DNA of 64,000 nt, filler included, from Streblomastix strix (lineage: Eukaryota), in the NCBI GenBank assembly GCA_008636045.1. It is 4 parts of 4 records of this genome, joined end to end, with 100 filler letters (N's around TTAATTAATTAA, not from the genome) between each part and the next. Parts side by side here need not be neighbours in the genome. Positions count along the whole stretch, not along the records: positions 32,257 to 48,268 come from SNRW01000885.1; 3 more parts are not named here. The stretch is one strand, 5' to 3'. Made by a program: the position numbers and the translations under genes. This document shows, piece after piece, positions 2,451-39,907 of the stretch (its first letter is position 1; every line of letters begins with the position of its first letter). Under the pieces are notes generated by a model. It was given only the letters and a program-made list of their open reading frames with translations, made no database searches and was not told where the DNA came from.

Positions 2451-4520
2451 TATTTAATATTTCTTCATTATCATTGTCGGTTTTATGATTCTCAATATCT
2501 CTACCCTCTCTTCTTTCCTCTATCTTCCTTAGTCAATTCAACTGTTCCAGCTAGTAAGTCTCGGAGTAGGGCACAATCTCTATCTGATTATCGGAGTTGG
2601 ATCCTTGTTTATATTTTTTAGATCCTACCTAGGTTTTTTTGCTTTTGGAGTGTTTTGCGGATTTGTCTTCAGTTACTGGGGCTACATCCGCCTTTTTTCC
2701 CCCCTCGTACTTGGTTTTAAAGTGGTTAGGAGCGTAGGAGTTGGCTCTGACTTCGTGATTCCTTAAGGAATTATCAGGTACAGATTTTGGCTACCCTGTT
2801 TTGCTTCTAGTGTCATGGTCAGTTGTTGGTTACATCCTTTGTTTGAGTACTACAACTATCCGTTTAACTTAGCGTAATTCTGGAAGGATGGCGATTAAGG
2901 GTTGTTGGCCTTTGGATTATGAAATGTTTTGATTTCCTAGTTGTTATTCGGAATTGGTTGTGTAAAGTGAGCTTGTCCCTTTAAATTTAGTATTTTCTTT
3001 ATCTTTAAGTTTAGTTTCTTGTTTCTGTTCGTTTTTATTGTTGGATCTTATTTGTTTTCATTCTCTCCGGCGCTATTATCATTAGTTTGCTCGTTATTGT
3101 ATTCATTGCCAGTGTTTTCGATTGTCTGATGGTTTGAGGGTCCATTTTCGTTGGTAACTGTTTGTTACTGCGTCCCTCAACCGTTTGCTCGGAGTTCATC
3201 TGATCTGTTTACATTGTGGAGAGGAGTTTTGGAGAATATTTTAGTAATACTGATCTCATGATTCGCATTTTCGTTGAATGTGGCCTGTAACTGCGTCCAG
3301 CTGTCATATCATCTATGATCATCGTTTCAATTAGTGAAATGCTAAGAGTTTGATAGCGTGTTCAGATCAGTTTACGTTTCCACTGTCTTCTGTTTCATCA
3401 TTTATGGTTCTCTCTAGTTCGTTCGTTAATTGATCTTGTTTTTTACTTTCTGTTTCTGAGTATATGACTAGTTCTGCTGCGAATATGATAAAACCTATTA
3501 CTGCTTCAGGTATTGATTGGTATATTTAGGTATGCATATTAATGAATTCATCCACTCCATCAATGATATTTATTAATCCTGGGATGTATGATCTATTTGG
3601 CAGAATCGCTCAAGCTTCGAGGTTGTCGGTCCATCAAAGACAATAGCTTACTACGCCCTCGAGTACGTCCCTATCAAATTATTCCCGTTGTTCTTCTGAG
3701 AGATTTAGGTTTTATGGTCAAGGTATTGGCGTTGGGTAGTAGTTCTTAGGTGGATAGAAGAAAGCAAAACCGTCTTTGTTCGGAAATTCTCTATACTATC
3801 CTGGCAACAAGATTTAGGGTATCTTCTTTTCTTCTTCAATTATTGGCTTCATTATTTCATGGAACCTTTCAACTACATCCATTTGTCCTGCATATTGTTG
3901 TAGTTTTGGTTATTTTCGTTCGGGGTCTTTTTCTTTGTGTCCTCGTAGGCCTCCAGGGGAAATTGTTCTTAGTATAGTTAAAGTTTCTTTTAATATTTGT
4001 GACGGTGAGAGTTGAGTGCGTGGTGAAATGGATTTATGAGATGTATTGTGTTATGGACTTATGCAATTATAATCTACGTTTGAGTTTGCTTGAGTATTCT
4101 AGTCAGATTGTATGTGTGAAATAGGGTTTTTAGCTCTGAACACCTTTATGTCTAATTTTCATTTATTTCTGGATCCTTTTACATTTGCGATTATTGTGGT
4201 TGGGATTGCTATTGGTTCTTAATCCATTGTTTTCTTTCATATTCGATCTGTCTCTCCTTTTTTATTTATCTGTGGCGTTCATCATCCTCCAACCAGTCTT
4301 CATCTCCATCGGTTCACGGAATCTCGTTGTTTCCTTTCCCTGTCCAATCTTCATATATTTCCTAGCAGCTACTACTACTGCTGCTGCTACTACTATTCAG
4401 TTTCTTTCTCTTTTCTGCCTCAAAGAGCTGTTCATCTAATCTCGGCCTTTTCAATCCTTTCCCATTGTCTTTTGCCTACTACTTCTCTCTTTTACATATT
4501 TTGAAAGATTCATTTTTTAT
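2450..4520 (-). pseudogene. DIRS gag-like ORF1, degenerate
   Basis: Lies upstream of RT. Ser-rich tract and DEDWLEDDE segment are shared with the second element at 14340-15900. Confidence 0.55.
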
Positions 4521-4805
4521 GGACTTATCGTGAGGACTTTGAGACTTGTATTCCTTTGACAGATAGTGTGGTATATTGATTTACTCCAGTGAAAAACCTG
4601 CGTCTGACCAGAACTCTCTCCAATCTCTAAATGTGAAGGGTTTCTGAGTTGCCAGTTTGCTGTACCATTTCGAGTTATTGTATTTGATCACTATTCGAAG
4701 GATTTTTTTTGAATAATACACATAATAACTAATATCAGAAAGTATAATTCGTTTTATTACTAGTAATTATTATTATTTTAACGATTACATTTTAAATGAA
4801 AATAA

Positions 4806-5180
4806 ATGAACATTATATTGATAATTGGCATTATTATAAATCACATTTTTTAAAGGTGTTAACTTCTTATTTTCTGTTATTATTGTATCCATTCCCCAGA
4901 AGCATAGGAATTGATTAATATATTTAAAAAGTTATGGAGTTTTATTGATGATGTAGTGAAACCGATAAATGCTGTACTGCATATAATCAAATTTTTTTAT
5001 CATAAAAAAATGTATAAGCATTAGACCAGTGAGTAAAATGATGTCATCAAAAAATAATGGAATTAGCTTTTAATTGATGAGTTGTATTAGTTAATGTTGT
5101 TGGCAATAGATGATTAAGATTTAATATTACCAAACATTTTCTGTATCTGACCATTTTGAAATTAACAAATTAAAAGAGTA
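4806..5180 (+). pseudogene. Small hydrophobic viral protein, frameshifted homologue of 36581-36949
   Basis: MNIILIIGII..GVNFLFSVIIVSIP..KKLWSFIDDVVKPIN..IKFFYHKKM aligns with MNILSLIMGI..GVNFITSVISVQIP..KTLWSYFDIVLVPLN..IQFFYKRKM. Confidence 0.7.
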
Positions 5181-5205
5181 ATGTTCGATATTTTATTTTT
5201 AATAA

Positions 5206-6290
5206 ATGAGTTCAAACAAAGTTTATGCTTACTACGATAGTTCCTAATATGCTATTAACCAAATACAGTTCGATAATTATAATATGTTAGAAGAATACAA
5301 AACAAAACTCTTGACTTCAAAATCAATTTTTGTTATTAATGGAAACCACTACATAGTTAGAGCTGTTGGAAATGGTAAAACAACGTTATTGACTAAGTTA
5401 ATAATATTATATAGACATATCATCAATCCTTACATTATATATTTCTTTAATCTAGATCCAGACGAGATTATGGCAATCAATATGAATTATAAAGGTGTAT
5501 TACTTACCATTATGATATTCAATGAAACTATGATTTTCCTACCTTAATTTGATGAACTTAAATATAAAATTAAAGAAATATATATATATATATATATATA
5601 TATACGTATAATAAGTTAAAGTATATGAATATACGCTATAGTAGTGATTATATAAAAAACTCAAACAAGAAATATATGATTCTAATTAGTTAAAAACAAG
5701 GTGAGTCCTATTAATAGTTTATAGCTAGAATGAAAGAAGAGTTCAAAATCTATTGTATTGAAACTATTAACAAATATAGCTAACCATAATAACTTTTATA
5801 GTTTTTTATTCCTCCATTGACAAAATACTAGATATATGAAATGAGATTAAAAATCGTTGATACAAATGAGATATAAGATGATGGTGTTGTATTAGTCAAG
5901 ACGCTAAAACTATCTGTACAATCGAATGCTAAAATGTCATCTACACTAATAATATTTGACGATATAGGTTCTAATATAGATAAACATCGTTATACCTATA
6001 AATTATCAAATACAATAACCCACTTAGTCAAAAATTGCAGACATCCCAAAAATACTTTATTCTTTATTGCCAAAAGATCAAGTTATCTTTTTAATTCTGC
6101 TAAAATATTGTGTCATGAAATAGTCTTAGGATCTAGGATATCAGACAATGACTTAAAGCAAGTACATGAAGAAAATCACATCAACAAATTGACGAAGTAA
6201 GAACTAATGATAATGCAAAACGCATTAAATAAGTATGAGTTTATTATCATTAATAAGTATCAAAATTGGTTTGAAATAATTCATTACTGA
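5206..6290 (+). pseudogene. A32-like (FtsK/HerA) viral DNA-packaging ATPase, degenerate
   Basis: Walker A HYIVRAVGNGKTT (first Gly replaced by Arg), Walker B LIIFDD, then CRH and FFIA motifs. The N- and C-terminal halves are out of frame, with a (TA)n tract at ~5579-5604. Clear homologue of 35547-36564. Confidence 0.85.
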
Positions 6291-6819: not shown

Positions 6820-6859
6820 TCGTTATCGATTTAATTTTAATATGCAGCAATCCCTATCT

Positions 6860-7671
6860 GGATGGTTCCGTTCAGATCCAACATCTATAATTTTATTCCA
6901 TAAAAACATTTAATTTATTTTTATTAATAATTTTCATAAATATTAAATTTTCGATTTTGCTCGAACAAAAAATGTGCAAAAATTTTATTTTATTTTATGC
7001 GCCGCGAATCGAATGTATTACTCTGCATGGTTTGCAAATATTTATAGTTAAATATTTCTAAATTAATTTTTCATAACAAATATTCAGTTTCAACGGCGTT
7101 GACGCGAAAAAAATTAAGGAAAATCAAAATATACGTTTTTCCATTGAATCTTACATTTAATTGTTTATTATTTTGTTTATATATTCTTTTAATTTTATTT
7201 TGTAAATAATTTTCTAATAAATTAAAAATATATTTGCCAAGTTATACGGCAGATTCGATTTTTTATTATTTTTTCATGACCTTCAGGACACAATGTAATA
7301 AAAAAAAATTCAATTATTTATTATTCTAAATATGAAATTTATTGTAATTATGAGTTAAATTTAATAAAAAATAAACAATTTTCGATGAGAAAAATGAAAA
7401 TTAAGATTTTTCTAGATTTTCTCGAGTTGACACGGCTGAAACTGAATAATTATTATAAAAAATTAATTTAAAAATATTGAACTATAAATATTTGCAAACC
7501 ATGCAGAGAAGTACATTCGATTCGTGGCGCATAAAATAAAATAATAATTTTGCACTTTTTTTTGTAAGAGCAAAATTTGAAAATTTAATATTTATGAAAA
7601 TTATTAATAAAAAATAATTTAAATGTTTTATGGAGTATAATTATAGATGTTAGTTCTGGACGGAACTATCC
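6860..7671. mobile_element. Non-autonomous element with ~300-bp imperfect terminal inverted repeats (MITE/foldback-like)
   Basis: 6860-~7150 is the imperfect reverse complement of ~7380-7671 (e.g. CTCTGCATGGTTTGCAAATATTTATAGTT against AACTATAAATATTTGCAAACCATGCAGAG). Ends GGAT...ATCC are flanked by ATCT on both sides. Confidence 0.75.
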
Positions 7672-8254
7672 ATCTATATATACCGTTATTTATATTTTTA
7701 TAATCGTCATCTTTCTATATTTAGATCGGAATATCAGGATGCCATGTTCCAATACCATCATATAAGGTCAGCTAATATTTTTCAAGAAATTTTATAGGAA
7801 AAGTGCCCATTTTATAATTTATTAAAAAAAATCATTTTTATAATTTAAATGTAATTCAAATTAATTAAATTAACATAGAATTATTTTACTTAAATTAAAA
7901 AAAATTACTTTTTTTTAAATAAATATTTTCATTTGATTCAATAGTAAATACCTTCATTAGCAATAATAATCAATTACTATAATTAAAGTTTAATACAAAT
8001 AACATTAACATTAATCATTTATGACTATTTTGATTAATATCTTACAATTTAAATTTACCATTAATTAATGGTTTTCTTTAATAATTCTTAAAATTCAAAA
8101 AAAATTTCATAATATTTATTTATTTAATTAATTGTTTTATTGATTTTATTGTTATTACAAAATAAAATGAAAAATAATACTAAAATTTCTGCAAATAATA
8201 CAGAATTATTAATATAAATAAACCCAATTCCTTTCCAACTTTTGATCACTATTG

Positions 8255-27381: not shown

Positions 27382-28451
27382 ATGGAACGTCTTTTAAATA
27401 AAACATCTCGACTTGCATTTACCACTCGTTAGTGCCGAGCAAACTTATTATTTAGCTTAACTATAGTTTCAATAATTATTGCACTCGTATTTGGATCGTT
27501 TGCCTTCGAATGGGATATTAAATACAGTGTAAGAATCAATGGAGCTAACCTTCTAAATAACAATAACGACACTCAACCTCCAAAGCTAAACAAGCTTGCT
27601 GAATCGATGAATTAGGACGAAGAATGGCCAAAACGCAAATTCTACGAGTACTATCTCTTCGCCACTGGCGTATTGCTCCTAGGCTCTATGGTATTTGGCT
27701 TTGCCACCTGCGTCAAGCGCGAAATGTCGCACATACGCCATGCCCTTCTGACTGTGTTTGTAGTCTTTTTCTTACTCTTCGGCGGAATCGGGGTCGTAAT
27801 TGCGCTGATTCTCGACGAGTACATTAGGCTGAAGAAGTTCATACAGTGGGTGGTCGTTACTGTGGCCTACTTCGTGTATTTCATAGTGAACATACTATGG
27901 ACAGTTAAATTGGTCAGGGACAAGAAGAGGAAGAGGAATAAGCTCATCATTTCAGGGATACTTTTCGTTAGTGAGGGATTGTTTAACTTTGTTGCATTTC
28001 TTTTAGTAACGCTTATTTACACTGGTTTGATTGCATACATATATATATTTATTATGTTTATTTGTAATTGTTCATATATTTTTTATATTTATTGTTTAAC
28101 TATTTTTTTTTTGCAGAAACAATTTCGTTGCCTTATTATGTATGTGGGCTGTTTAAAGTAGTGGCAGAGATATGTTAACGAATATACCAATTGATAGATG
28201 GAACGCTGATATATAATCTTGGTTAATATGTAGGCATCACTTCAATAATAGTTCCTGGGATAGCGTATATATTTGAGTTTATATTGATACCACTACGAGT
28301 TGATACAACAATCACAATTCACACGGCCATCTTGCTTATTCCGATCTATTTGTATTTGCTTTTCAACGTAATTCTCCTTTCAATGCACAGGAGATACACT
28401 TTCTCGGTTGAAAAAGTGATGCAAGAGGAAAATAACTAAAATACGGTGTGA
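27382..28451 (+). CDS. Multi-pass membrane protein, tandem paralogue A (one intron ~28025-28116)
   Basis: About 7-8 hydrophobic segments. Shares FEWD, FY.YY, E.LFNF..FL.V.LIYT and ILIPLR.D.TIT.HTAIL.IP.Y.YLL with paralogue B. Confidence 0.85.
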
Positions 28452-28864: not shown

Positions 28865-29860
28865 ATGGAAGAGAATCTTGTTAAAACTGAAGATGTTGAT
28901 GATAGTTCGCACGTTTGTCGGTCCAACATCTTCATCATTATTGGCATGGCCTTAATGATAGTTGCTTACGTGTTTGCTGCGTTTAGCTTCGAATGGGATA
29001 CTGAGTTTGACATGCCAAAAAAAGGAGAACCTGCCGTAGAAAACAGAAGTTTTTATCAATACTACGTTTTCGCTGGATGTGTATTCATTGTATCCTTTAT
29101 CGTCATCACTCTTGAAATCTGCTGCCTATAGGATTTAGGAATGACCAGGCTAATAATTGGTATCGTCTTTGGCATAGTCTACGTAATTTTTGCCGCAATT
29201 ATGATAATCTTCACACTCATGCTGGATTACGTCATCCGAGTCAGCAAAACGGTCCTCTGGAGCATTGGCACTGCTTCATACGGATTAAGCCTCTTTTAGG
29301 GCATGTGGGGCCTGGCCACGTCGTGCTGCGGAGATAAAGACTCAAAAACGAGGTCTTTTTTTGTCGCTCTTTGTGTGTTTGGCGAAAATTTGTTCAATTT
29401 CCTGTGTTTCCTGTTTGTCGTACTCATTTACACTGGTATATATAATTATACTATTTATTTGCATGCATTAAACTAATTTACATACATATATATTATTACT
29501 CATTATATAAACACAGGCAACCTGAACATGCGATATATAATTCCTGGTGTGTTCAAACTAATAGCCGAGATTTTTGAGCGGATCAAACAGTTAGTTGAAG
29601 GGAAACTCATCCACAATCTCGGTGCATTTCTTGGCATACTGTGCATAGCCATACCTGGGGTGTGCTACATACTCATGGACATACTGATACCCCTGCGTGA
29701 GGACCGAACTATTACGACTCACACGGCGATTCTGGCAATACCACTGTATGTGTATCTGCTGTACAATATAGTTCTTCTCCTGTGGGCGAGCAAGTACACG
29801 TATAACTTCAAGCAGGCTATTCCTATAAAGAAAGGCATGACGGATTCTTCTGAAGTTTGA
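28865..29860 (+). CDS. Multi-pass membrane protein, tandem paralogue B (one intron ~29436-29517)
   Basis: Same motifs and same intron position (after LIYT) as 27382-28451. Ends TDSSEV*. Confidence 0.85.
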
Positions 29861-32256: not shown

Positions 32257-35200
32257 ACGTTAAGAATTAACTAAGACATTTATTACTACGATAACGAACA
32301 TAAGAATTATTATAGAGGGCTGTAGATATTGTATTAATATAAAGATTAAAATGAAAAATAAGATGTCAAAACAATCGATATATTAGTTGTTGAATCTATT
32401 TATGAAGGAAAGAAGATTTCTCATGTATTTGCAATAGCTAATAAACAAGCATTGACGGGATTGAAATTTTGTCCAAATTGTAACTCAAAAGCGTTTGATC
32501 CTAAAGATAAAAATTACTCAAGAGACTATGAGAAACACACTATAAAATGCGAAAATAACGAAGGAAAAATAGTTAAGAAAGCTAGTTTAGAATATATCTA
32601 AAAGCCATTTGTTCCACACATTATGCAAAATATAACTTATCAATATCTATTAGCAAAAGGAAGATAATATGAATTTAAACCTACACAATACTTCATCACA
32701 TACGATCTTGAAACAGTTCCTAAAATCGTTAAAAAAAGTTCAGTAAATCAAGCTGTTAAATGTATGAACAATTACCTTTATCAGTAGCATCAAATATCTG
32801 TATCAAATAAAGAATTAAGAAAATCTTCTTTAACTAATAAGATGGAGATGAATTTATAGTCTAATGGTTAAATTAATTGTTTAAAGAAGCTGATTAAGTT
32901 AATGCTGACAACTAGTGTATAACAGAAGCTTGCACCATTGATGAATCAATTCCTTATTCAATGGAAGTACCAATAGTAGGATTCAATAGCTCAAGATTTG
33001 ATATATCATTAATAATATCATAAATGTAATGTAAAGATTGGACAATCAGTAATTATATAGATAGTCCTTCATAAGCAAAGCAAGTAATTGAGCATCATAA
33101 AAAATTGAATATGAAAGTGAAATTTGTTGACATGTTAACGAATCTATAACCTATGGAATTAAAGTAAGCAGCTAAAGATTTTGGTGATGGATATGATGAT
33201 AGAAAAGGCTTATTTCCCTATGACTCTTTCAATACTGATAATGTAAATGAAGTATTAAGTAAATCAGAGTCATTTATAATGGAAGATTTCAACTCATCAT
33301 TGATGAAGACAAAAATTAGTTAGAAAGATTATTAAATTTATCTAGAAGATGCAAAACGATTTAAAAATAGATGGGACTATTTACAACACTATAACGAATA
33401 AGATACTAATATAGTGATTAAACCGTTAATGACTCTAATTAGCTTACAATTTAAATATAAAATTGATATGTTTAGTTTCATGAGTATGGCTGCATGCTCT
33501 AGTGCTATCAAATATGCTAAAGCATATGAGGATTTTGACATTAATGGAGTATATCCTAATTTTGAAGATTTGTCATAGAAATTTTACTTAACAGAGAACT
33601 ATTGGTTGAGTAAAGTGCGGGGATATCAAGTCTAAGATAAACATTAAAGAAGAGACACAACAAATAACGTATAAGATAAGGATTTCGATTATTTCAAACA
33701 ATTATTCAAAGATACCAATTGCAGCATTTGCAGATGTAAATTCACTTTTGCCAATAAACCAACTCTTGACAGAATCTACAATTTAAAAGGTCATTCAAAA
33801 GATAATATTCAACCTTGTTGTTTATATTGCAATTGCTTTTATTCAATCAAAGATAAAAATATAGGTAAATTGTTCATATAATTACGTAAATATTGTATGA
33901 TAAGATGTTTACCAACTAACCTAACAGATATTAATGTATATCATTTAATCAGGTCAGGAATAACAGGTGGATTATCAAATGTAATGCATCGAACTAATAG
34001 ATCAGGAATTGATTTTATTAAACGATTATATTATAACAAGGAAGCAAAAAAAGTTACTGTTCTTACAACGGATCATCGAATAACGCATGTAGTCGGTATT
34101 GATTTTAATTCTTTATATCCTAGTGTTATGTCATCAGAGCCACATAAATTTATTAAGTATACAGGAGGTAAAATGTATATGTGCGAATCATAAACAGGAA
34201 AGATTAAGGGTAATAGTGAACATTCAAAATAAACTATACTATGAATAATTAATAGCAATAAGCGATTTACATAAGACGGAAGATTATTCATTGCTGAAGT
34301 TAAAAGTCATATTGATGAGAATTACATAAACGATTTCATTGACTTTCCACCTATTCTAAGAAATATTGAATTCACAACTGATGAAAGAACTATCGGTTCA
34401 TAAATGTATAAACATATGAAGTACAATACGATTAAGACTGATCAAAAATAAAGAAAGCTAACTAATCTATCTTCAACGATGGGAGAATATATGGCATTAA
34501 GCTCATACTATTTATGGTTCTTAATTGATGATTGTCATTTTATTAAAAATGATGTGAAATAGATAGTGCTATTCAATAAACATGACTAATTCAGTTCATT
34601 TATTAAGGAATCTACTAAAAACAGAATTGAAGCAAAATTAGATGAGAATAAGTGATAAGAATAATTCTTTAAGATTGTTATGAATAGCTCATATGGTAGT
34701 GATGGAAGGAATACAGAGAAATATCATAAAGTTAAAATAATGAATAGTAAGTAAACAGAAAGAGCAATTAGATCTAATGCATTCATGAACGAATAAAAGA
34801 TATCTGAAGATAGTTATATTGTTTAAATGAATCCTGAGCATTGCAGTTGTAAAACTCCTTTATAAGTAGCTTTCTTTGTATTAGATAATGCAAAATATTG
34901 GTATCTAAACTTTATATATAACTTCACGTACAAATGCTTAGATATTAATCGTATTCATTTTATTGAAGGAGATATTGATTCAGCTTATTGGACTATTAGT
35001 GGTAATCCTAATGAAGATTTTACTTAGTAATTTAATGCTGTAGTTAACACTAGAGATTTTTATAATGAGAATGCAAAGTACTTCTTCCCTATGATTAGAG
35101 GAAACGTATATGATGAGAAGAAAATCCTAGGATTAGCAATCGAACGACAAGGACCATCAATGATAGCATTAGCTCCCAAAAATTATATCATATTCAAGAA

Positions 35201-35498
35201 TTATTGTGATGATTCAAAAATATAATTAAAAGGGGTAAATTAAAAAACTAACAAAATCACTAAAGACTAGATAGTCGATTGCATTAATGAAAGTAAGATA
35301 ACGAAATGCGACAACCTAAGGCTTGGCTAGAAGAATCATTAGATGAGTTAATTAGCAATAGAAAAAAATGGAATAACTGGAATTCACACAAAAATGATAG
35401 TGCTTGAGAATCAATCATGCTGTCCATTTATGTATGGATTAGTTGCTAAGGATTAGTTTTTTACCAAAAATGCCATCTCCGATGACTCATTCAATTGA
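32257..35498 (+). pseudogene. Protein-primed family B DNA polymerase (Polinton type), 5'-truncated and disrupted
   Basis: Exo I YDLET, Exo II GFNSSRFD, KGLFPYD, Exo III YNEQD, motif A DFNSLYPS, motif B KIVMNSSYG, motif C EGDIDS (DTDS expected), LAPKNY, KGV. Frameshift ~32740 and in-frame TGA at 34242 and 34653. Confidence 0.95.
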
Positions 35499-35546: not shown

Positions 35547-36564
35547 TCATTTATTTTTGAGAATCTCAAATTTCCTGAGCCATTTGTTTAGAATGATAAA
35601 CTCATATTTCTTTAATGTATTGTATAATAATTGGAATTCATCAAAACCTAAATTTTATATAGTAATTTCATCATACACTTATCTTTGATCAGTTTCTCCA
35701 AGATTAACGCCTAAGCAAATGACATGTGTTAGTATCCTTGCAGTTTTGAACAAATAAATTGGACGTTAAGCTATAAAGAAAATAGTATTTTTACTATGTC
35801 TCGAATCATTAATGAGATGCGTAATTGTTTTAGATAGTTATGAACTGAATCATTAGATATCTGCATTAGAGCCAATGTCATCGAATAGCATTAACGTATT
35901 GAGTAATTGAGCTTTTTCTAATATAAGTATTTTCATTATTTTTTACATCAACCTAATCTTGATCGACTATTTTGAATTTCTTTTAGCAACGAACATTTTG
36001 AATTAGCGCAGGGATATCGAATCTCAATATCTTGGTTGGTTCACAATATATATTAATGGTTTCGATTACTTTTAATTTGAATAGTTCAGCAATTTTATTA
36101 AGATAATCATTAGGTTTTTCATTCATTTTAGTCTCATTAGCTTATAATATCTATTCTTCCATTCGCTTAATGAAATCGCTAGCATAAGATTATTTTTGTT
36201 CATTCATTTTGTACCATGTATACATCTCTTTAGTGGAAAATTTTATGTCATCAAATTCAGGTAGAAATATCATTGCTTCTCCATAAGTTACATTCGTTAG
36301 TTATATATTCTTACTATTAAGGTTTAATGCCATAGTTTCATCTGCACAATAATTCGAGAAGTATAATATGAATGGATCAATGATTTTCTTATATACTACA
36401 ACTAGCTTGCACATTAATGTTGTTTTACCATATCCAACAGCTCCAACAATATAATGGTTTCCATTAATAAGGAACAATGAATTCTTCGTTAATGGCTTAG
36501 GTTTATATTCATTCAATAGATCTTGATTAGTAAATGTTATATCTTATAATTCTTGTAGTGACAT
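35547..36564 (-). pseudogene. A32-like DNA-packaging ATPase
   Basis: Walker A GAVGYGKTT, Walker B LMLFDD, SRH arginine finger, FFIAQ (Q encoded by TAA). Frameshift ~36210 and TGA at 35850-35852. Confidence 0.9.
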
Positions 36565-36580
36565 TTTCAAAAATAATAAA

Positions 36581-36949
36581 ATGAATATACTATCTTTAAT
36601 CATGGGAATAATGAATTACATGTTCTATGGCGTTAATTTTATAACATCAGTTATATCTGTGTAAATTCCTGATAAATTAATGGTTATAGTTAATGTAATA
36701 AAAACATTATGGAGTTATTTTGATATAGTATTGGTTCCATTAAATTTAACGATTTACATTATATAATTCTTTTACAAAAGAAAAATGGATAAAAATTAGT
36801 CTCGCATTCATTGGTCATAGCTATCAGTAGAATAAATTGAAGCATTTCTGAACGAAGCAATATCAAATAAAGATTTGGAGTTGACAACTCATTGGAGATA
36901 TATCTTGTATCTTAAAATGTTAAATTAGCCATAAAAATAATTTGTTTGA
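36581..36949 (+). CDS. 122-aa viral protein with a hydrophobic N-terminal half
   Basis: Intact in code 6. Homologue at 4806-5180 next to the other ATPase. Confidence 0.75.
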
Positions 36950-37654: not shown

Positions 37655-39907
37655 TCATGGAGGAACTGATCCTAATGTTAATGGATGAGCTCTCCAGAAT
37701 ACGTTATTTCCATTGCTATAAAATCCACCTATTGGATCTGTACTATTTACACCCCATAAGATTGGATTGCCTGCAGAATAATTAACCGATCCGTTAGTTG
37801 CTCCATTTGTTGCTCCAGTTCCTGCTATAACAGATCCATTAAAAGTTAATGTATTTCCATCAGCTGATATCATTAGCCCTTGATTTTCATAAAGAAGTTA
37901 ATCACCAACTCCAATCCTTAAACTACCAGCATTTGTAGTTACTATACTCCACTAATCTGTTATTGTTCCAGTTGCTTAATTTGGATCACACCCGAGATAT
38001 ATTCCACTATAATCACTAATGGTAGATCGTGATATTCTTATTCCTTCATTAAAATTATTAACAGTTGGATTAATTTATATTGCATCACATTTGACACCAG
38101 CAAATGTTTTTTTACCTGTAATCGTTTAATCAGTTCCAACATTAACTAACTCATTACCATTAAATTTTAATTATGTACAATCTCCATTAATACTTAAACC
38201 AACACTATGATCAGTTTATCGTAGAGATGATAGGTTAATTGTCAATGCCCTATCACTTGTCTTACTTATCTCCCATTAACCAGTTTGTGTTGTTTTTATA
38301 GCTGTAGTTGACCATCCTAAATATAATGATGAGTATTAAGTGTAATAGTTTCCAATTCTAATACCATTATTATACGTAGCATATGTTCTACCTATTGGAT
38401 TAACTTATAACATATTATTAATTATTCCACCATTAGCTAAATCATAAGTAATTGGTATTTAGGTTCCATTTGCCACTCCTTAAACTACATCTTATGTTAA
38501 TATCTCTGTGATTCTATTGGTATAATAAGTGCATTAATCAGATACAACTATCGTAACTGTACCAGCTGATTCTAATCTAACATATGCTGAATAAATAGCT
38601 GATGTACCAGATCCAGAATGATTATGAAATAATTAATTTACACCTTATTCAATATCATAATATGAACTAACCTTAACTGCAGCAGTAAATATACCATAAA
38701 CAGTATTGATTCCGTTAACGGTATAATAAAGCACTAATCTAATGGTTCGAACAGCATTATACGATGAATATACTTTAAATTCAATGAATGGACTACCAAC
38801 ACTAGCACCTGCAGGAAATACACATAATCTAATCCATCCACCAGCGCTACCGTTGTAAGTTCTAGAAATTTTACTATCTATTGTAGTTGTATCAACTTTG
38901 GCACATAGTATTTCTGTTGCTAATCCACCTGCTTTAATGAACTTAGTTGCTGTAACGTTTCCATCATAAGTTAATTGCTATGAATGAACGTTATCTTGTC
39001 TAGCGTAAAAAGCTGATGTTCCAATAGCACCAACACCATTAACGATTGGAATATTTGAAGCATTAGTTTCTACATTAATTGGATGTGAATGATCGTTTCT
39101 AGCATAATAATTAGTTGTACCAACTTATCCATCTGCACTATCTTGTGGCGGGGTGGTAGTAGTTATATTAATTGGATGTGAATGATCGTTTCTAGCATAA
39201 TAATTAGCTGTATCAACTGATCCACTAGCAGTATCTTATGTTGGAATAGTTGATGTTATATTTAATGGATGAACATGATCTACACGTGAATATTCTGTGC
39301 TATTTCCCGCGTTTGCCCTACCATCAGATAATGGCGTTGCATCACTAGCTGGTGTAACTTAATCAAGAACTATATCTCCACTATTATACCAATTTTAATC
39401 ATACATCCATACTGTCCCACTTTCAGCACTAAATGCAAAATCACCATTAGCGGAATTAGGCAAATTTTATACATCTGTATTCAATAAATAATATCCTCTG
39501 AAATGTATTTATCTTGATAATTCTTGATTAATAGTATAAATATCATTTTTTATATCAGTGATATCTTATTCAGTTGTTCCGATTGATTATTATAATAGAT
39601 TCACTTAATTAATCAACAAATTAATCTAAGCGACAAAATCAAAATTAATCACTTTCAAATTCTTTATAGTTAATAGACCATTTGGTTCTATTTTTAATGC
39701 AAAATCTGAAGCCATTCCATCAACGATTTAATTATTTGCGGCGTAGACTAATGCATTGTTATTATCTATGAATAATTAATACTCTTCATTTGACATCATT
39801 CCACCACTAGAGTTACCTCGTTTCTAATATTGAATGTAGTAAGCTATATCGTTAGTAGTGAGCTATCTAACTGTACGGATTTATTATTATGATAGTGAAT
39901 TGTTCAT
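37655..39907 (-). CDS. 750-aa virion fibre/spike-like protein with phage tail-fibre repeats
   Basis: 751 codons without TGA. N-terminal coiled coil, four G..(G)....Y(A/S)R.D(H/N).H(P/S) repeats, TATKFIKAGG motif, VNVGTDQTITGKKTF motif, repeated G/N/T/S-rich beta modules. Confidence 0.8.

Follow-up and report, generated by a model that had tools for sequence, protein, structure and literature searches.

A probably phage-derived fibre gene in an endogenous virus of the protist Streblomastix strix

How did a viral element in the genome of Streblomastix strix come to carry a protein with repeats like those of bacteriophage fibres? The window, the whole 64-kb stretch of DNA that was analysed (64,000 nucleotides), consists of four contigs joined by N linkers, and the fibre-like gene P0001 lies on the contig at 32257-48268. 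It is read on the minus strand from 39907 to 37655 as one 750-aa ORF under genetic code table 6 (Table 1). Under table 11, no ORF of at least 100 aa was found across 37655-39907. Phage-like fibres are already known in Polinton-like viruses and virophages. New here are a prophage module that can be traced by sequence, its tandem amplification and the swapping of distal cassettes. We consider it probable that P0001 encodes the attachment fibre of an endogenous virus in this protist, and that its proximal module was captured once from a tailed phage of gut-type bacteria.

Table 1. Parts of the fibre-like gene and neighbouring genes, in positions of the window
Feature	Position	Strand	Remarks
Fibre-like gene P0001, 750 aa	37655..39907	-	Open under code 6; family of at least 284 relatives
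N-terminal part, residues 1-88	39644..39907	-	Best-conserved region among copies; no outside homologue found
Coiled coil, residues 89-133	39509..39643	-	AF2 helix 89-132; heptads from sequence
Small beta knob, residues 134-182	39362..39508	-	Common to prophage proteins
Four repeats of 31-33 aa, residues 185-311	38975..39355	-	End in Y[AS]RxDHxHP: HVH, HSH, HSH, NVH; predicted metal-clamped shaft
FIKxGG linker motif, residues 316-339	38891..38962	-	Common in viral contigs; cassette-swap point just after
Beta-sandwich, residues 345-488 (AF2-confident 348-458)	38444..38875	-	Tailspike-C-terminal-like; other domains substitute in some copies
Two beta-rich modules, residues 500-700	37808..38410	-	Split by DQTITGKKTF
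C-terminal tip, residues 701-750	37655..37807	-	Conserved, median 78% among 57 copies
PolB-like gene, broken, at least 3 pieces	32266..35498	+	Endonuclease-VII-like insert; phrog_1035 E 1e-10
Packaging-ATPase-like gene, broken	35625..36807	-	Walker A GAVGYGKT; 52-73% to paralogue P0237
Gly-rich 67-aa ORF	40001..40204	-	Directly upstream of fibre gene; between fibre and capsid-like genes
Putative major capsid gene, in-frame stops	40271..42256	+	50% over 672 columns to P0435
Second, related fibre-like gene remnant	42508..42978	-	44% over 80 aa to P0011 188-267

An open fibre-like gene among broken neighbours

The element that carries P0001 is very likely a decayed Polinton-like endogenous virus, an assignment made by context more than by passed tests. 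It uses the host code, its fibre and capsid-like genes have at least 284 and at least 264 relatives, and a host-like gene, armadillo-like with weak matches, lies on the same contig. Motifs in the translations of the PolB-like gene were recognised by eye as what we take to be PolB-type, and the gene had no Pfam or PDB polymerase match. The ATPase paralogue P0237 matched Pox_A32 weakly (E 0.0015, 18.5 bits, below the cut-off of 22.8). Ten of the 120 listed relatives of the capsid-like gene are named 'Major capsid protein' by the database, and all named relatives among those listed are from S. strix. An AF2 model of P0435 (55 rows) was poor (mean pLDDT 44) and had no clear fold match. A contig is shared with a listed capsid-like gene by 13/119 fibre records, 12 of them within 2 locus tags, where a rough estimate gives about one by chance and both lists are best-matching slices. 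The left end of the element is cut by the contig edge, and no integrase or penton gene was identified on the contig. Because the polymerase-like, ATPase and capsid-like genes are broken, this copy of P0001 is probably dead.

Several further observations concern the surroundings. The Gly-rich ORF starts with MG, likely forms an amphipathic helix, is 65% identical to a paralogue and had no match in a Pfam scan. It is a possible membrane-lytic peptide, presumably of the kind found in adenovirus protein VI. P0011 and P0237, relatives of the second fibre-like remnant, share DQT, FIK and beta-module motifs. Another packaging-ATPase remnant of the same family lies on a different contig (5254-6224, plus strand, and 6859-7672) near a long imperfect inverted repeat. 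Two neighbouring ORFs at 27382-28194 and 28865-29860 (plus strand) look related to each other, encode multi-pass membrane proteins and contain hardly any TAA/TAG codons. By eye, the capsid-like family is distant from the S. strix capsid in the accessible part of the Bellas 2023 supplement. It may be a second, divergent family; metamonad capsids are described as highly divergent and unplaced in the accessible text of 10.64898/2026.06.19.733378.

Endogenous viruses of the Metamonada group that use the host code, with 820 capsid hits, have been reported from S. strix (accessible sections of PMC10120064) and agree with the P0001 element in host, code and high copy number. The main text of that paper has 0 occurrences of fiber, fibre or tail, and the locus tags of five relatives and the tag prefix of our contig were not found in the accessible part of its supplement. 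In literature searches outside subscription papers, neither S. strix fibres nor the HxH module turned up.

Both TAA and TAG are read as glutamine across the element. They make up 35/42 glutamine codons in P0001, 27/34 in the capsid-like gene, 22/29 in the PolB-like gene, 13/19 in the ATPase gene, and 17/22 and 4/8 in two host-like genes (GC3 0.14). Because the share in P0001 resembles that of its neighbours, drift under AT bias suffices to account for it, and the recoding reads as ordinary drift. The idea of a special, adaptive recoding of the gene was rejected, since the share in P0001 is no stronger than in the neighbours or one host-like gene. In the module shared with prophages, 9/10 glutamine codons are TAA or TAG, and one TAA aligns with a glutamine found in 107/158 phage modules, which bears out the original prediction that the gene was recoded to table 6. 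Code 6 would read an incoming standard-code gene correctly except for TAA and TAG stops, and a recoded gene would have no return to bacteria.

A predicted repeat-bearing shaft and exchangeable distal domains

The family of P0001 is best conserved near its N-terminus, with a median identity of 93% over residues 30-130, and residues 1-88 are likely a capsid anchor. In the coiled coil, heptad position a is occupied by Ile/Val and position d by Leu/Thr/Ile, a pattern of the trimer type. The AF2 monomer of P0001 (mean pLDDT 63, pTM 0.37) contains the helix, the beta knob at residues 136-179, a confident sandwich and the distal beta modules, with pLDDT below 50 in the repeats. Such low confidence would be expected of an obligate intertwined trimer, and equally of disorder.

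The four repeat motifs that had been described, YSRVDHVHP, YARNDHSHP, YARNDHSHP and YARQDNVHS, are all present. They start at residues 206, 237, 268 and 301 (nucleotides 39292-39269, 39199-39176, 39106-39083 and 39007-38984), spaced by 31, 31 and 33 aa, and repeats 2 and 3 form a 93-nt direct repeat (82%). Not one of 20000 shuffles of the P0001 protein (0/20000) produced a single Y[AS]RxD[HN]xH motif. The description of all four as HxH repeats holds for three; the fourth is NxH, its first His being gone in the P0001 copy. Across the family (340 motif copies, 120 proteins) the first His is conserved in 98% and the second in 97%, values that lean high because the filter required at least one His. 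Sorted by motif number, 121 proteins comprise 43 with four, 37 with three, 14 with two, 24 with one and 3 without any. P0001 itself departs from the family at 14/294 conserved columns, one of them a His, an ordinary rate (4.4% against a median of 4.5%).

FIKAGG (38941-38924) and DQTITGKKTF (38131-38102) had been described as following the repeats. Both are there, but DQTITGKKTF lies 270 aa beyond FIKAGG. We take it to resemble a BppL_N motif, and a prophage relative, P0260, has a weak BppL_N match. The short motifs are widespread. HxH was counted by hand in at least 118 distinct ORFs of viral contigs, most of which carry P-x-x-D/N-G-x-A upstream, outside the search pattern. FIKxGG recurs 126 times with matching upstream residues in viral contigs, with the HxH motif in none of the stretches examined. 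Scans found no Pfam or PHROG family for either motif. Ten copies of the HxH motif occur in a single viral ORF, at least 1633 aa long, of the IMG/VR contig L048 (match region 2873-6054).

P0001 had no Pfam, PHROG or PDB sequence match, and 71 family members searched against Pfam, PHROGs and PDB gave just weak coiled-coil or unknown matches, none convincing. By fold, the likeness to phage fibres that had been proposed was recovered, the matches being phage fibres and tailspikes. Foldseek with the whole model gave tail fibres (E 9.6e-10) and gp37-type fibres (3.7e-9) as the best viral matches, at TM-scores of just 0.16-0.18 and with aligned ranges not given. In VIA comparisons the sandwich matched WceF (6tgf; Z 10.1, rmsd 3.2, 123 aligned) and the C-termini of Acinetobacter tailspikes (Z 7.1 and 6.7). 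For the distal half as modelled, the likeness to phage tail fibres and to C-terminal domains of tailspikes lies in the fold alone.

The best 120 of 284 homologues are all from Streblomastix strix, one of them being the database's alternatively spliced model of the P0001 gene itself. P0028, P0044, P0051 and P0092 are 78-94% identical at residues 30-345 and 17-18% identical at 348-470, which indicates that distal domains are exchanged as cassettes between copies. This comparison uses NCBI gene models, which are prone to mis-splicing, as in P0002. When the 130 aa after the linker were clustered at 65% identity in the linker-bearing copies (92/120), groups of 74, 3, 2, 2 and 2 and 9 singles were obtained; at 30% identity the same 92 copies fell into clusters of 88, 3 and 1. 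Two alternative cassettes were each found on separate contigs. Beyond the sandwich, residues 600-690 are the most variable stretch (median 49%).

HxH pairs in a fibre-like protein are common to P0001, T4 gp37/gp12 and R-pyocin fibres, whereas in P0001 they are proximal and set in a different, 31-aa repeat. A direct link to T4 gp37/gp12, as originally proposed, was not recovered: the P0001 protein and two profiles had no PDB match to gp37 or gp12 at E<=10, and the comparison is therefore an analogy, alongside the whole-model Foldseek matches to gp37-type fibres. In pyocin and T4 fibres, HxH pairs supply six His that hold a metal, which probably helps the fibre to fold and stiffens it (accessible text of PMC6116203). 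In the mechanism predicted for P0001, its N-terminus would dock onto the capsid, the coiled coil would initiate assembly of a homotrimer, and each HxH pair would converge with its two symmetry mates to place six His around one metal ion. As one ion is predicted for each HxH set, four metal-clamped repeats would form a stiff shaft with staged folding. The sandwich and distal beta modules are predicted to bind a surface glycan or protein, and a swap of distal cassettes after the FIKxGG linker would alter specificity.

Homology of the proximal module to prophage proteins

Residues 96-218, comprising the coiled coil, the small beta knob and the first HxH, are homologous to a module of virion proteins from Bacteroides and Clostridia prophages. 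P0001 is 43% identical to P0218 over 127 aa (BLASTP, pairwise E 1e-26). HHalign of 71 protist copies with 66 phage-side proteins gave 99.89%, E 7e-33 over 123 columns, and in phmmer against the whole library 11 long proteins reached E-values between 1e-43 and 1e-116. These proteins (945-1687 aa; 3/11 named Bacteroides sp. or Tannerellaceae) align several times each to approximately residues 90-220 with 29-46% identity. A representative search matched 1219 proteins; among the best 150 of these, the low-identity matches other than the long proteins were S. strix in 9/9 cases checked. S. strix paralogues aside, the closest matches come from prophage virion proteins rather than from cellular proteins of the host, as the original prediction had anticipated.

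P0001 and the prophage module keep the same order of coiled coil, HFRGY knob, PDQ linker and YxRxDHxHP, and both His positions are kept in 156/158 phage modules each. The prophage module (P0218, P0166, P0189 and P0225; L131, L132, L136, L138 and L141) is a true homologue of residues 96-218, at 33-46% identity. The prophage proteins contain the complete module in 1-6 copies set between long coiled coils; unlike them, P0001 has one module, three extra tandem HxH units, different distal domains and code 6.

The surroundings of the relatives are those of prophages. Portal, head protease and holin genes are present in all three Bacteroides sp. contigs (L131, L132 and L136), with an amidase in L132 and L136 and a tape measure gene in L131 and L132. 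In L138 and L141 (Bacillota) the relatives are accompanied by portal and tail protein genes. The relative in L128 adjoins a portal gene, and those in L127 and L149 adjoin tail proteins. L134 has a head protease and a weak tail-fibre match, with no portal found, and L140 (3 ORFs) and L148 (2 ORFs) gave zero PHROG matches. Pfam Phage_tail_C was above cut-off in P0136, P0189 and P0231. Other eukaryotic viruses could be hidden among the phage-side proteins. The Bacteroides relative is flanked by head-protease and portal genes and matches 'minor head protein' PHROGs, so it may form a fibre of the head instead of the tail; the matches point both ways. The gene order in L131, L132 and L136 is odd (tape measure, head protease, fibre, portal, holin). 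Neither a capsid nor a terminase was recognised among the 46 ORFs tested, and these contigs possibly represent an undescribed phage group.

In tblastn searches of 50,697 GenBank phages, neither the whole protein nor its C-terminal 256 aa had a match, the repeats gave 3 records at E 2-3, and the prophage module gave one unannotated record. IMG/VR yielded motif-level matches but nothing closely related to the fibre as a whole. No phage sequence match was found for the distal half. The phage homology visible in sequence comparisons covers the proximal shaft module and short motifs and not the likely receptor-binding half. The original prediction, that a receptor-binding protein was acquired from phages, is probably right for the proximal module.

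As had been suggested, a phylogeny of the module was constructed. The S. strix modules form one clade in unrooted trees (support 98, starred, with 92 columns; 100/98, starred, with 91 columns), on a short stem of 0.29-0.36 substitutions per site among more diverse phage-side modules. One clade on a short stem fits a single capture. All four donor groupings compared survived AU tests (p 0.18-0.25), and the proposed acquisition from phages is not tied to any one donor lineage. Since the trees are unrooted and the AU tests reject nothing, we infer the direction of transfer from distribution. A Bacteroidales donor was considered and dropped; it appeared in a quick tree (87, unstarred), without support from the careful tree or the AU tests. 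No donor is claimed, because the groups were defined once the first tree had been seen and the 41 rows were hand-picked from 83.

Origin, ligand and significance

Two other origins were weighed. The module may belong to an old pool shared by phages and Polinton-like viruses, or have come through an intermediate eukaryotic virus, without a direct capture from a gut phage. Many Polinton-like viruses, including those of Trichomonas, have phage-like fibre domains (accessible text of PMC12220804), a great number of viral contigs carry the short HxH and FIKxGG motifs, and the unrooted trees and AU tests accommodate a pool as well. Against this stand the approximately 40% identity, the full module order retained, the short stem, and S. 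strix as the sole named eukaryote among the named matches listed; we regard a shared pool as unlikely. Much less credible, to the point of being nearly negligible, is the idea that the contig belongs to a recoded bacteriophage, or to the prophage of a symbiont, that was swept into the assembly. The module is prophage-like and the assembly is a single-cell metagenome, according to a reference title in the accessible part of PMC10120064. However, TAA and TAG both encode glutamine across the element, as in the published S. strix elements with the host code (same source); the neighbours are PolB-like and A32-like, with no portal or terminase match in the 9 ORFs scanned; and the weakly matched armadillo-like gene shares the contig. 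Capture by the virus from a phage of gut-type bacteria remains the preferred reading.

Ligand and role were considered in the same way. The fibre might bind bacteria rather than the protist, recognising polysaccharide on the surface of the Bacteroidales rods that cover Streblomastix, the virus riding on bacteria to reach or stay on its host. Streblomastix has filamentous Bacteroidales ectosymbionts (accessible text of PMC2717939), the sandwich most resembles C-terminal domains of polysaccharide-acting tailspike proteins, and there is a precedent in virophage DSLV2, whose fibres are linked to cyanophages and whose tails bind Synechococcus LPS (accessible text of PMC12724248). But such sandwiches are common and a common fold says nothing of the ligand, and phage likeness by sequence is limited to the shaft module, the distal half being without a phage match. 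We hold bacterial binding to be quite doubtful. The fuller scenario, in which the virus took a Bacteroidales-phage fibre, amplified the metal clamp and swaps bacteria-binding heads, with the ectosymbiont coat as landing pad and recoding making the transfer one-way, is improbable as a whole. Domestication of the family as a host surface protein, for example to hold symbionts, is very improbable: the ORF is intact amid broken neighbours and the family is large, but the fibre is still linked to capsid-like genes, P0001 departs from conserved columns, including a His, at the usual rate, and no signal peptide or membrane segment was evident by eye. A viral fibre with a probably phage-derived shaft is the preferred interpretation.

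Related fibres differ from P0001 in construction. Like P0001, DSLV2 has a phage-related fibre of a small eukaryotic DNA virus near capsid genes, but its fibre is a heterotrimer encoded by three short genes, with a collar domain and relatives in cyanophages, whereas P0001 is one long gene; HxH, iron and histidine are not mentioned in the accessible text of PMC12724248. Virions of Gezel-14T contain a phage-like fibre (accessible text of 10.1101/2022.07.28.501842). The fibres of Polinton-like viruses (Gezel-14T Ltf; PTR, BppL_N and Peptidase_S74 types; accessible texts of PMC12220804 and 10.1101/2022.07.28.501842) are, like P0001, encoded by long modular genes; unlike them, 71 family copies had no Pfam PTR, BppL_N, gp36, collagen or S74 match. 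Streblomastix is not mentioned in the accessible text of PMC12220804.

Phage-like fibres of Polinton-like viruses have so far come mostly from remote profile or fold matches. The link of P0001 is plain in its sequence, and its case is more traceable than most published phage-like fibres. With it, a widespread phage fibre module and an HxH motif are defined, neither with a Pfam or PHROG family, and phage-style swapping of distal cassettes becomes visible across many endogenous copies. Because the link leads to prophages of gut-type bacteria and the host is wrapped in Bacteroidales, transfer from phage to eukaryotic virus becomes datable and testable. If the fibre binds the bacterial coat, virus hitch-hiking on bacteria would be extended to a gut symbiosis.
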